Below, piece after piece: positions 3,001 to 6,000 of a DNA stretch of 17,842 nucleotides. Where the stretch lies: positions 1 through 17,842 of IMG/VR virus record IMGVR_UViG_2703718801_000005. One strand, written 5' to 3'. Position 1 is the stretch's first letter, and each line of letters opens with the position of its first letter. The stretch is from a virus. Its lineage: Duplodnaviria > Heunggongvirae > Uroviricota > Caudoviricetes. The position numbers are program-made.

Positions 3001-6000
3001 CCAGCCATCAACGCCCACCACCGGAACGATGCCGTTCTGCTTATCAGGGAAGGCGTAAATTTCTTTCGTCCATGGATTAAGGCCGTACTGGTTGGCAACG
3101 ATCAGCAATGCGATGAACTGCGCATCGCTGGCATCACCTTTAAATGCAGTCTGGCGAAGAGTGGTGATCAGTTCCTGTGGGTCGACAGAATCCATGCCGA
3201 CACGTTCAGCCAGCTTCCCTGCCAGCGTTGCGAGAGCTGTACTCATCTGGTTTATACCTCTGAATCAATATAAATCTGGTGGCGGGCAATGGTTTCAACC
3301 ATGTACCGGATGTGTTCTGCCATGCGTTCCTGAAAATCGACATCGTCATCAAATGCACGGGCAATGGCTTTTTTGCTGGCTCCATGACGTTGCAGATTAT
3401 CGATGCACAGCGATTCAAACAGGTGCTGGGGCAGACCTTTTTCCAGGTCGTCCGCCAGTTCAGTCTCATTTTCTTCACGGGTAATTTGCCGGTAGTGTCG
3501 TGCCCATGACTGCTCTTCAATGCGATCGGGGATAAGCCAGGCATTCATGATTTATCACCTCCAAAATTTTCAAGCCTGTTGGCAATCATGATTGCGATAT
3601 CAGGGATTGCTGGCGCTGTTGCGACGCATGCAGGGTTTGCGCACAAACCATAGACGGCTGCAAGCACGAGTTGCCTTTTCCAGTCGAAATCTGCTTGCTC
3701 TGAATCATCATTATTGTCAGAAGCATCACTATCTGGATCGATGTGAACAACCGAATCGTGTTCCTGAGTTGTATCAACAGCATTTTTCTGAATGTATTCA
3801 TTCTTCATTTGTGCCTGGTCATCTCCAGCAGCGGTCTCATTTTCTCCAAAAGTTTCAGCGTAAGTTTCATCTCCCATTACTGGACCACAGTCAGGGCAAT
3901 GCCCGCCACTGTTCTGACCGCATGCGGTGCAAACCTTTTCCACTTCCTGTTGCATTACTGGCCCAGGCTGTTGCTCTTCTGGTCCGTTTTGTTGCGTATC
4001 CGGGCTGTTTTGTTCCACTTTGGATTGATTCTGGTCCTCAGTGTCGCGAGTCTGGATCCCCTTCACCCACTTCGGGTCGGTTGGGTCGCTGATGCCTTCA
4101 ACGAACTCCCCACGAGAGGCAGCCAGCAATTTGTCTGCATCGACAGGATTTTTGGGCAAAATGTTTTTCCTGGCTTCATAGAGTTCTGCTCTCAGTTCCT
4201 GGTATTTCGTTTCTACAGATGAGACATTTTCCAGTGATTGCGTGTCCGCATTATGTTTAACTGGAATTTCTTCCACTGATTCAGGCGCTGCCTGTTCATT
4301 AGACATTGCGTCCGATGTTTGCTGCTTTTCTTCATCGTCATGTATCTCTTCTGCTGTTCCGCGCTGCGGCATCGGGGCTGATGAGCGACCGCAGGCAATT
4401 TCCACGATTTCCGGATCCGGGTTAGAGTGATCGGTTTCGGTCAACACTTTGTTGAGATATTCAGTCACGCGCGCCGGGATAGCCTCAATGCCAATTGGTG
4501 CTTCTTTCACTGAAGCCACCACAATGGCGCGGGAATAATCCAGCCCACCGGGCATGGCGATGAATTTGTCACGGAAAACAGAAAAGGGCGGTTTATTCTC
4601 TGCAACGATTTCTTCAACGCGTTTTGCATGTGCAGGGTGCAGGTTATAAATATCCACATCCATTGAACGGGCCAGAACGCCAGTGGCAATGTCTCGCGCC
4701 AGTGATGCCTGATTGTGGGTAAAGCCTTCGCCACGATCGGTAAGATTTCCGCCGCCAGCGTTAGCACCGGAAGGCGTACGAGTGATGCCTGTAACATAAT
4801 TTCCTTTCTGCCATTCTTTTGCCAGCAATCCCTGATCCACATAGTCTGTTTTCATCCAGGTGGAGATGAACTTGTCGAATTCGGCCGGGCTGATATGACG
4901 GGGTGTTGCGTGAGAGAATGCCTTTCCAACGGATTGTGCCAGTCTTCCCAGATGATAATTCGTCAGCTTATCCAGCTCTGGATGTGAACGCACAGCAGTA
5001 AGCAGGCTCTGAAGGTAACTGTCTTCTGTGTCCATCTCCATACGGATCACGTTATTTCGTTGTTCGGGTGTGGCGTGATGCCGGTATTTTCCATCTTCAT
5101 CTTTGCTGAAGAAGAAGAGGTGAAGGAAGCGATGAGTAAGGCTCAGAGTGGCGACGGGAATTTCACACTCAGAACAGTCATCGTCGCTGTCCGGGGATTC
5201 GCTTTTCTCCACATCATCCGGAATAGTTCCGTCCAGGTTATCGTAGTCATCGCCAGCTGTTGTGGCATCTTCACCGTTGATGTTGTCATCGAAGGGGATT
5301 GCCATCATGGTGATGCCATCTTCCCCGCCTTTTTCATAGCGGTTGCAGAATTCAGTATCAAACACGCCTTCCGGTGGAAGGTCATTCACGACGGGGAAAT
5401 TTACGCGAACGGGTTTTTTGAAATCATCCTCGTCGTAGCCTGCATCGTCCATGGCTGCAATGCAGCGGGAAACTGCGACAGAAAGTTTTCTGGTATCAGC
5501 CCAGAAAAAACCGCCTTTGATGCCAAGGCGTTTTCTGACTTTATCGTTTTTTGCTTCGCAGTGCAGTGCAAAAGTTTGTTTATCAGCGCTCATTGTATTT
5601 AAACCTCTGGCTGGATTAGAATTAGCGGCCCTTTGTCTGATTTCTCCGAATACAGTGACGCAGGGGGGAGTCCGGTAGCCTGCGCTGCCGGATTTTTTAT
5701 TTCAGTGTAAGGTTGCCTGGTTTGTTGTTTTGTGAGTTGTTTTTTTCTTTTCATGCTGGCAGTCAGAGCAGTTGCATTCGCCATTTTCTCTGAGAAGTTG
5801 AAGTGCCAGGGTCAGTTCCTGAATTCTTTGTGGATCAATATGACTGTCGACAATTTCAGATGCAGCATGAATATATGGGCTGGTGGTTTCGCAATATAAA
5901 CCGAAGGAAACAAAGCGACTGTCTTTATATTCGTTATTTCCAACTTCTGTAAGCACTGAAAAAGAAAATACAAAGTCGATTTTGTGTTTTTTGCATATTT

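Follow-up and report, generated by a model that had tools for sequence, protein, structure and literature searches.

A nuclease-less relative of the RecE N-terminal region encoded directly upstream of gam-bet-exo in a Stx-type lambdoid prophage

RecE and RecT are the workhorse of recombineering, and two-thirds of RecE has been without a known function since the 1980s. What can this region do when it is separated from the nuclease? The question is raised by a DNA of 17,842 nucleotides from a Caudoviricetes virus (IMG/VR record IMGVR_UViG_2703718801_000005, positions 1 to 17,842; "the window" hereafter means this whole stretch), where an open reading frame (ORF) of 682 amino acids (aa), named in databases as an exonuclease of the RecE family, lies directly upstream of the lambda Red genes gam, bet and exo. 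The window is a Stx-type lambdoid prophage with the gene order S24 cI-like repressor, N-like gene, kil, the 682-aa ORF, gam-bet-exo, DUF4222 gene and int, and the coordinates of its features are collected in Table 1. The initial annotation, made from the sequence alone, had described a single large ORF whose stop codon overlaps the start of gam; this has been confirmed, and the strand, which had been left unstated, is the minus strand. The ORF begins with ATG at 5593-5591, preceded by GAGG about 10 nucleotides upstream, and ends with TGA at 3547-3545, which forms an ATGA overlap with the ATG of gam at 3548-3546; the Shine-Dalgarno sequence of gam sits inside the last codons of the ORF. The frame is intact, with a 100% identical copy in E. 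coli 2012C-4502 (WP_001271581.1) and with more than 100 protein clusters (each at 90% identity) of 680-700 aa that span the protein end to end at 79-100% identity. The gene is 99% identical in the Shigella phages 75/02 Stx and POCJ13, and 90-91% identical in phiSTEC1589-Stx1c and in PhiR5_2, whose recorded host is K-12 MG1655.

By BLASTP, residues 51-584 were aligned with residues 43-546 of K-12 RecE at 54% identity, and another RecE allele gave 63% identity (up to RecE residue about 571). The phrog_607 profile was matched over its positions 1-618 of 883 (E 1e-255), and NF007259, the NCBIfam model of the RecE equivalog, over positions 1-593 of 877 with 744.7 bits against a cut-off of 1269. The sole Pfam domain is PF06630 (Exonuc_VIII; residues 53-197, 46.6 bits against a cut-off of 25), which models only the non-catalytic N-terminus of RecE. 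The catalytic PD-(D/E)xK domain of RecE, PF12684, occupies its residues 615-850. Homology to the 682-aa protein stops just before this domain, PF12684 has no match in the protein, and neither the RecE nor the DEDD nuclease domain gave a tblastn match at E ≤ 1 in any frame of the whole window. The window also lacks recT, the gene after the ORF being gam. Judged by identity and architecture, the 682-aa protein almost certainly belongs to the RecE N-terminal scaffold family as a member without a nuclease. The likeness to the uncharacterised part of RecE, which had been noted for internal segments, is real and strong, and no nuclease domain is recognisable, as had been proposed.

Since homology stops before the catalytic domains and no nuclease was found in any frame, the protein is neither exonuclease VIII nor a decayed one. 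A functional exodeoxyribonuclease VIII is what the names in GenBank, RefSeq and PHROGs and the above-threshold match to PF06630 would imply. This is scarcely credible, and the candidate was rejected: PF12684 is missing and PF06630 covers the non-catalytic part only, the NF007259 score is below its cut-off with the match ending at position 593, and the alignment with K-12 RecE ends at its residue 546, so that the protein is not a full RecE orthologue with an intact nuclease. In the AlphaFold2 model, residues 513-635 are disordered, including the Cys4 motif described below, and only a two-helix hairpin (638-678) follows, with no nuclease fold. The database name "exodeoxyribonuclease VIII" is an over-extension of an N-terminal domain match, and because the entries lack a nuclease, hundreds of database entries for this form are misleadingly named.

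Comparison with two nuclease-bearing relatives defines the shared part. RecE of the Rac prophage (E. coli K-12 b1350, 866 aa) has in common with the 682-aa protein a helical core (residues 253-413, 87-88% identical), a block at 463-517 (89-91% identical), an identical Cys4 motif, and an early-left operon slot flanked by kil and xis/int. It differs in its PD-(D/E)xK domain (RecE 564/606-866, PDB 3H4R), in place of which the 682-aa protein ends in an unrelated hairpin tail of about 50 aa, in having recT as the partner gene where gam-bet-exo follows here, and in the first 50 residues and residues 145-252, which have diverged to 21-45% identity. The other relative is a RecE-N::DEDD "exonuclease" of E. 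coli and Citrobacter prophages, found in the same operon slot (for example WP_000102188.1, 847 aa; 823 aa in phage Chris1). WP_000102188.1 is 73% identical over residues 1-584, including an N-terminal domain not present in this form in Rac RecE, but it carries a Rv2179c-like DEDD 3'-5' exonuclease (PF16473, 666-837) instead of the tail. Genes of this type are directly followed by xis/int, without gam, bet and exo.

The 682-aa protein (75.1 kDa, pI 4.56, 124 D+E against 66 K+R, 12 Cys) was modelled with AlphaFold2 (model m986c1c381e7c; 94-sequence alignment, mean predicted local distance difference test score (pLDDT) 76, predicted template modelling score (pTM) 0.50). The predicted map consists of folded modules and four disordered linkers (Table 1). 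The acidic, D/E-rich character that had been noticed at the outset is evident, and it is concentrated in the linkers, which account for 43 of the net -58 charges, against net values of -1 to -6 in the mildly acidic folded modules (pI 5.4-6.0). Residues 253-413 of the all-helical domain form the family-defining core, marked in order by RTxSGxxAGGGNxTDR, PGxLDYSRA, DHxxP and ACG. The first 289 nucleotides of the gene are about 82% identical to many E. coli "exonuclease" genes. A Cys4 motif is present as had been claimed, with the arrangement C555-x2-C558-x7-C566-x2-C569; its central spacing is x7 and not x9, and a second CxxC occurs at 140-143. Pfam zinc-ribbon matches were all below threshold. 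A zinc ribbon does not hold as a family feature, the motif being conserved in RecE and close relatives, found in 9 of the 84 relatives surveyed below and deleted in one relative (P0098).

None of the modules could be linked to a protein of known structure or function. By sequence and profile, only the RecE nuclease was matched in PDB, through other members of the alignment; Foldseek of the modules against PDB had a best E of 2.4, and nothing was found by a BFVD fold search of the modules, by Pfam on the isolated blocks at E ≤ 10, or by PADLOC.

Relatives were collected by an exhaustive HMMER scan of 1.84 billion representatives, which gave 218 at E ≤ 0.001, and the C-termini of 84 representatives of at least 450 aa were surveyed. 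Twenty end in a PD-(D/E)xK nuclease, 14 in a DEDD exonuclease, 20 in the hairpin tail and 30 in none of these; no protein combines two classes, the tail is never more than 15 residues from the C-terminus, and a Pfam count of part of the family agrees with these numbers. The core is present in 68 of the 84 (19 of the 20 in the tail class) and the block 458-517 in 37. Among 50,697 phage records, 34 have the core, all of them temperate or prophage-derived and with almost all hosts enterobacterial; they include E. coli, Shigella, Salmonella Gifsy-1 and Gifsy-2, Klebsiella and Citrobacter.

The tail has the motif W-K-x-Q-L-x-x-AA-x-x-G-x-CANP ... IP ... A ... and the class consensus LTYxQQLTIAALQGLCANPA...DDIPxMA; even where tail-class proteins share only 20-30% overall identity, residues L642, A645, A646, G649, C651, N653 and P654 do not vary. 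It falls into no Pfam or PHROG family except RecE-like ones, and a tail profile run against 5.8 billion proteins returned short fragments only and no other protein context, a weak negative from a small candidate set. To judge from its sequence conservation, the tail is a genuine small domain and apparently an undescribed one. A membrane anchor was considered and rejected: although the highest 19-residue Kyte-Doolittle value of the E. coli lineage reaches 1.7, 18 of 20 family tails stay at 0.45-1.27. The opening residues of the tail, QL(V/T)(L/I)AA, may resemble the beta-clamp-binding hexapeptide QLxLxL, a likeness on which we do not rely; the segment is predicted to be helical and the last position is a misfit. 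In one relative of 703 aa (P0124), the RecE N-terminal region continues in frame into RecT residues 84-269 (97% identity); this protein probably arose by deletion within a Rac recET locus rather than by design, and it explains part of the "RecT" Pfam count of the family.

In the genomic contexts examined, the family gene is always in the Rec-module slot between kil and xis/int, and RecE-type members are paired with recT (Rac, HK225, Klebsiella phages). The initial annotation had supposed that lambda Red supplies the nuclease role, which implies a split RecE, whose tail would dock lambda Exo, Bet or Gam and so rebuild a RecE-like machine with Red. This is consistent with the mutual exclusion of tail and nuclease domains, and with the finding that the E. 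coli gene is almost always joined to gam-bet-exo: among 5426 complete E. coli genomes, at least 80% of the gene is present in 89, and the stop/start junction between tail and gam in 103, one O104:H4 strain included. The model is nevertheless improbable, since eight of eight diverged tail-class loci, in prophages of four other genera (Buttiauxella, Citrobacter, Lelliottia and Cedecea), keep the tail without exo, bet, gam or recT. Their order is repressor, kil and small genes, the tail-class gene, one or two small genes, xis and int, and in none of the eight is there another ORF of at least 150 aa between repressor and integrase, or one of annealase size. On the strength of these loci, a docking peptide for Exo, Bet or Gam was rejected as a general explanation, and the supply of the nuclease role by Red is not general, coupling to gam-bet-exo being found only in the E. 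coli/Shigella lineage of the window. Because the tail-class genes stand there without these neighbours, the protein is autonomous, and the invariant residues of the tail are kept in the absence of Red.

The small genes downstream at the eight loci encode Rrf2-type or winged-helix proteins, DUF7740, DUF1187 and proteins without assignment, and some overlap the stop codon of the tail-class gene. Rrf2/IscR-type winged-helix regulators recur beside RecE-scaffold genes in other genera: at one locus (L005, 7449-7814) the start of the regulator overlaps the stop codon of the scaffold gene, at another (L012, 6139-6483) it is immediately downstream, and in Chris1 (L018, 3414-3785) it is upstream. Such a regulator may be a recurring partner or regulator of the scaffold genes.

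The substitution pattern indicates that a function of the 682-aa protein is maintained by selection. The ratio of nonsynonymous to synonymous divergence (dN/dS) is 0.06-0.2 in the N-domain (residues 1-100), 0.08-0.16 in the helical domain and core across comparisons, 0.04-0.13 in block 463-517 across comparisons, and 0.18-0.20 in the tail among close nuclease-less relatives. Against RecE and the DEDD-fused relative, it is 0.08-0.13 in the core 253-413, 0.04-0.06 in the block and 0.63-0.73 at residues 414-462. The linkers are weakly constrained (0.5-1.2 overall): linker 1 has 0.9-1.2, linker 2 has 0.6-0.9 across comparisons, and linker 585-632 has about 0.53-0.55, with 42-44% aa identity among close relatives that share about 90% elsewhere. 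Core conservation imposed by an overlapping DNA or RNA element is ruled out, since dS there is 0.6-0.8 (the same two comparisons) against a dN of about 0.07, and such a high dS leaves no place for a hidden constraint at the DNA level. When the window was compared with PhiR5_2 or E. coli 1604D011, dS was 0.05-0.08 in residues 1-140, 414-462 and 554-584, and 0.25-0.65 in residues 141-413, 463-517 and 585-682; these sharp jumps between adjacent segments point to recombination within the gene on several occasions, with breakpoints close to the disordered linkers.

That gam-bet-exo took the place of a recET module and left the gene behind as a remnant without function would fit the mosaic nature of the gene and the existence of relatives, such as P0124, that are clear deletion products. 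It is nonetheless very improbable: the ORF is intact in the more than 100 clusters mentioned above, the folded modules and the tail are under strong purifying selection at substantial synonymous divergence, and the tail is kept across genera in proteins that have otherwise drifted far apart. A decayed recE pseudogene was rejected, given this selection and given that no frame retains a trace of a nuclease.

No function is known for the RecE N-terminus; the literature is unanimous on this, in agreement with the initial annotation. A retron paper treats the nuclease activity of RecE only, and a Stx-phage genomics paper gives only the name of the protein. Nuclease-less RecE relatives are mentioned once: a survey of lambdoid phages (Genome Res 2025, PMC12315714) has one sentence, without analysis, on "RecE-2" proteins in lambdoid Rec modules, stating that their function is not known, and this sentence does not refer to a conserved tail, mutually exclusive C-termini or independence from recombinases. 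By description, RecE-2 agrees with the 682-aa protein in homology to the non-catalytic part of RecE, in having no predicted nuclease fold and in the early-left Rec-module slot; it differs in being called "distantly related" there, whereas the 682-aa protein is closely related to RecE, and this phage lineage may be one of those meant there. The sequence itself was already in databases under its misleading name. What appear to be new are the domain map with its selection profile, the CANP hairpin tail as a third C-terminal ending exclusive of both nuclease endings, the persistence of a tail-class protein without any phage recombinase, and the tight coupling to gam-bet-exo in Stx-type phages.

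As to mechanism, we tentatively favour the reading that the 682-aa protein serves phage DNA-end metabolism as a multivalent adaptor without catalytic activity. It would act there during lytic growth, and the overlap of its stop codon with the start of gam implies that Gam, Bet and Exo would be produced along with it. Partners, which may be host or phage proteins and possibly the ends of DNA, would be bound by the folded modules and the short conserved motifs, with the flexible linkers extending their range. Whatever the nuclease domains contribute besides catalysis would come from the tail, most simply by self-association, because the RecE nuclease is a tetramer, or else by partner docking. 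By analogy with the same region acting in cis in RecE, the adaptor would raise the efficiency of end-to-end (linear-linear) recombination. We prefer this reading because every catalytic domain found attached to the scaffold is a DNA-end exonuclease, because the gene occupies the Rec-module slot and is co-translated with Gam-Bet-Exo here, and because the homologous RecE region measurably improves end-to-end recombination. The last point is an empirical boost of linear-linear recombination by the N-terminal region in cis, that is, by full-length RecE. Since the assay includes co-expressed Gam (PMC4381043), the effect is not merely RecBCD inhibition.

Several points weigh against an adaptor. No DNA-binding, oligomerisation or partner-binding fold is recognisable, all fold and profile searches of the modules having been negative, and folded domains of the pI found here are atypical of DNA binders. 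Tail-class and DEDD-class relatives occur in prophages without an annealase or a 5'-3' exonuclease, so that the function of the scaffold cannot depend on a phage single-strand-annealing system. Action of the RecE N-terminus in trans is an assumption, and self-association of the tail is purely inferred.

The operon in which the gene lies bears on a different explanation. In it, the protein inhibits a host nuclease of the RecBCD kind or an anti-phage defence (restriction or another), binding through its conserved modules or its acidic disordered regions, and in the nuclease-fused relatives the same module would target the nuclease. Its neighbours kil and gam are host-takeover genes of the early-left operon, the protein is autonomous in prophages without gam and recombinase, and no lambda-Gam homologue was found in the RecE-, DEDD- and diverged tail-type contexts examined. 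Short conserved motifs in a disordered context, such as SDPxDPKW, resemble host-protein-binding motifs, and a Gam-like function within recE was suggested by Reyes in 1981, as cited in bioRxiv 10.1101/2022.01.13.476211. Inhibition is the main rival of the adaptor and still a serious one, although we consider it rather unlikely, since this phage already has a translationally coupled gam, and the absence of gam elsewhere is weak evidence when 177 of 246 lambdoid phages have no known anti-RecBCD gene (PMC12315714). In addition, the developers of RecET recombineering (Stewart/Zhang) see no apparent Gam equivalent in RecET, and added Gam still helps full-length RecET (PMC4381043).

Lambda Gam and other acidic inhibitors are indeed like the 682-aa protein in early-left location and net negative charge, in addition to the 1981 suggestion. 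However, Gam is a small folded dimer with no similarity in sequence or fold, it is still needed beside full-length RecE, and the charge of the 682-aa protein is placed in weakly constrained linkers and not on a folded surface. A folded DNA mimic is therefore unsupported, a disordered one being still conceivable, and no similarity to a known anti-defence or DNA-mimic protein was found in Pfam, PADLOC, PDB or BFVD; the early proposal of an acidic mimic or inhibitor has thus gained no positive support.

Timing of expression is also relevant here. Between the pL-like promoter and the ORF there is no apparent dedicated promoter or terminator, site counts being within shuffle expectation, and the early-left operon including the 682-aa ORF is probably transcribed from that promoter, which is itself a consensus match. 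Expression is probably delayed-early, upon induction, and not from the repressed prophage; in our view this argues against a role in defence that protects the lysogen.

A broader reading, possible though on balance doubtful, is that the N-terminal 550 or so residues of RecE are an autonomous carrier scaffold, with the core 253-413, which engages a conserved host target and bears interchangeable C-terminal output modules. In this same doubtful proposal the outputs would be a 5'-3' exonuclease, a 3'-5' exonuclease or the CANP hairpin of about 45 aa, and the hairpin-ended form would work without a phage nuclease or annealase, the host target being a component of the replisome, repair or defence. 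If it is true, the 40-year-old puzzle of the "dispensable" RecE N-terminus would be answered outside exonuclease-driven recombination. The probability left over by the adaptor, the inhibitor and the other candidates weighed above belongs to functions not yet imagined.

The finding overturns nothing, and it recasts the old question of the RecE N-terminus as a clean genetic test, the gene being a natural separation-of-function allele that has the mystery region alone, under purifying selection. Because it occurs in the inducible Stx-converting phages 75/02 Stx, POCJ13 and phiSTEC1589-Stx1c, in an O104:H4 genome and in PhiR5_2, the question is directly testable. Should the scaffold turn out to improve end joining by Red, recombineering with Red could make use of it; should it prove to block a host nuclease or a defence, it would represent a new counter-defence family.

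Table 1. Features of the window, with the basis of each assignment (residues are those of the 682-aa protein)
Feature	Position	Strand	Basis or remark
682-aa ORF, nuclease-less RecE-N-terminal-type protein	3545..5593	minus	homology; WP_001271581.1, annotated "RecE family exodeoxyribonuclease"
Residues 1-100, alpha/beta N-terminal domain	5294..5593	minus	pLDDT ~96; conserved FPVVNDLPPEG
Residues 101-140, disordered acidic linker 1, net -15	5174..5293	minus	ends at CxxC 140-143
Residues 141-413, large all-helical domain	4355..5173	minus	pLDDT >90 (model 141-410)
Residues 414-457, disordered acidic linker 2, net -10	4223..4354	minus	AlphaFold2 (disordered 421-455)
Residues 458-517, conserved helical block	4043..4222	minus	RGEFVEGISDPxDPKWVKG; helices 458-493, pLDDT 66-91
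Residues 518-553, disordered Q/E/P-rich linker 3	3935..4042	minus	AlphaFold2
Residues 554-584, Cys4 motif and VMGDxTYxExFxE	3842..3934	minus	final RecE-homologous segment; pLDDT <50
Residues 585-632, disordered acidic linker 4, net -12, hypervariable	3698..3841	minus	sequence comparison
Residues 633-682, C-terminal helical hairpin (tail)	3548..3697	minus	helices 638-652, 654-678, pLDDT 81-87
Translational-coupling junction	3545..3560	minus	gam Shine-Dalgarno AGGTGA 3560-3555 and ATGA stop/start overlap 3548-3545
gam, 98 aa	3252..3548	minus	PF06064, 206.6 bits
bet, 261 aa	2461..3246	minus	PF03837; annotated Bet
exo, 226 aa, lambda exonuclease family	1784..2464	minus	PF09588 (YqaJ)
Early-left ORF, 128 aa	5702..6088	minus	phrog_2016, conserved
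kil	6179..6412
Early-left ORF, 125 aa	6726..7103	minus	phrog_2982, conserved
ORF, 238 aa	7114..7830	minus	phrog_2539; no Pfam hit
pL-like promoter TTGACT-17-AATAAT	8294..8322	minus	consensus match only; adjoins repressor gene
isrK Hfq-binding RNA	15034..15110	plus	Rfam gathering threshold, 74.7 bits
C4 antisense RNA	15136..15219	plus	Rfam gathering threshold, 66.7 bits; adjoins isrK
sRNA-Xcc1	16118..16207	plus	Rfam gathering threshold, 67.5 bits

Other parts of the prophage gave minor observations. The 128-aa ORF is directly upstream of the 682-aa ORF in all close relatives, and kil is flanked by this gene and the 125-aa ORF. The 238-aa ORF lies directly downstream of the N-like gene, and its central Cys-rich segment has weak matches to the PHROGs of Lar-like restriction alleviation, endonuclease VII and HNH proteins (E 1e-9 to 1e-6). 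The window yielded no tRNAs. In the record of E. coli 2012C-4502, an "ATP-binding protein" of the replication region (about 11363-12103, plus strand) is marked by PGAP as a pseudogene with an internal stop, at a place where the window has a 246-aa ORF (11369-12109); the prophage may be replication-defective. In the same strain, the prophage integrase abuts a ynfG without its N-terminus (L001, 14587-15126, beyond the left end of the window), which suggests integration of the prophage into ynfG.

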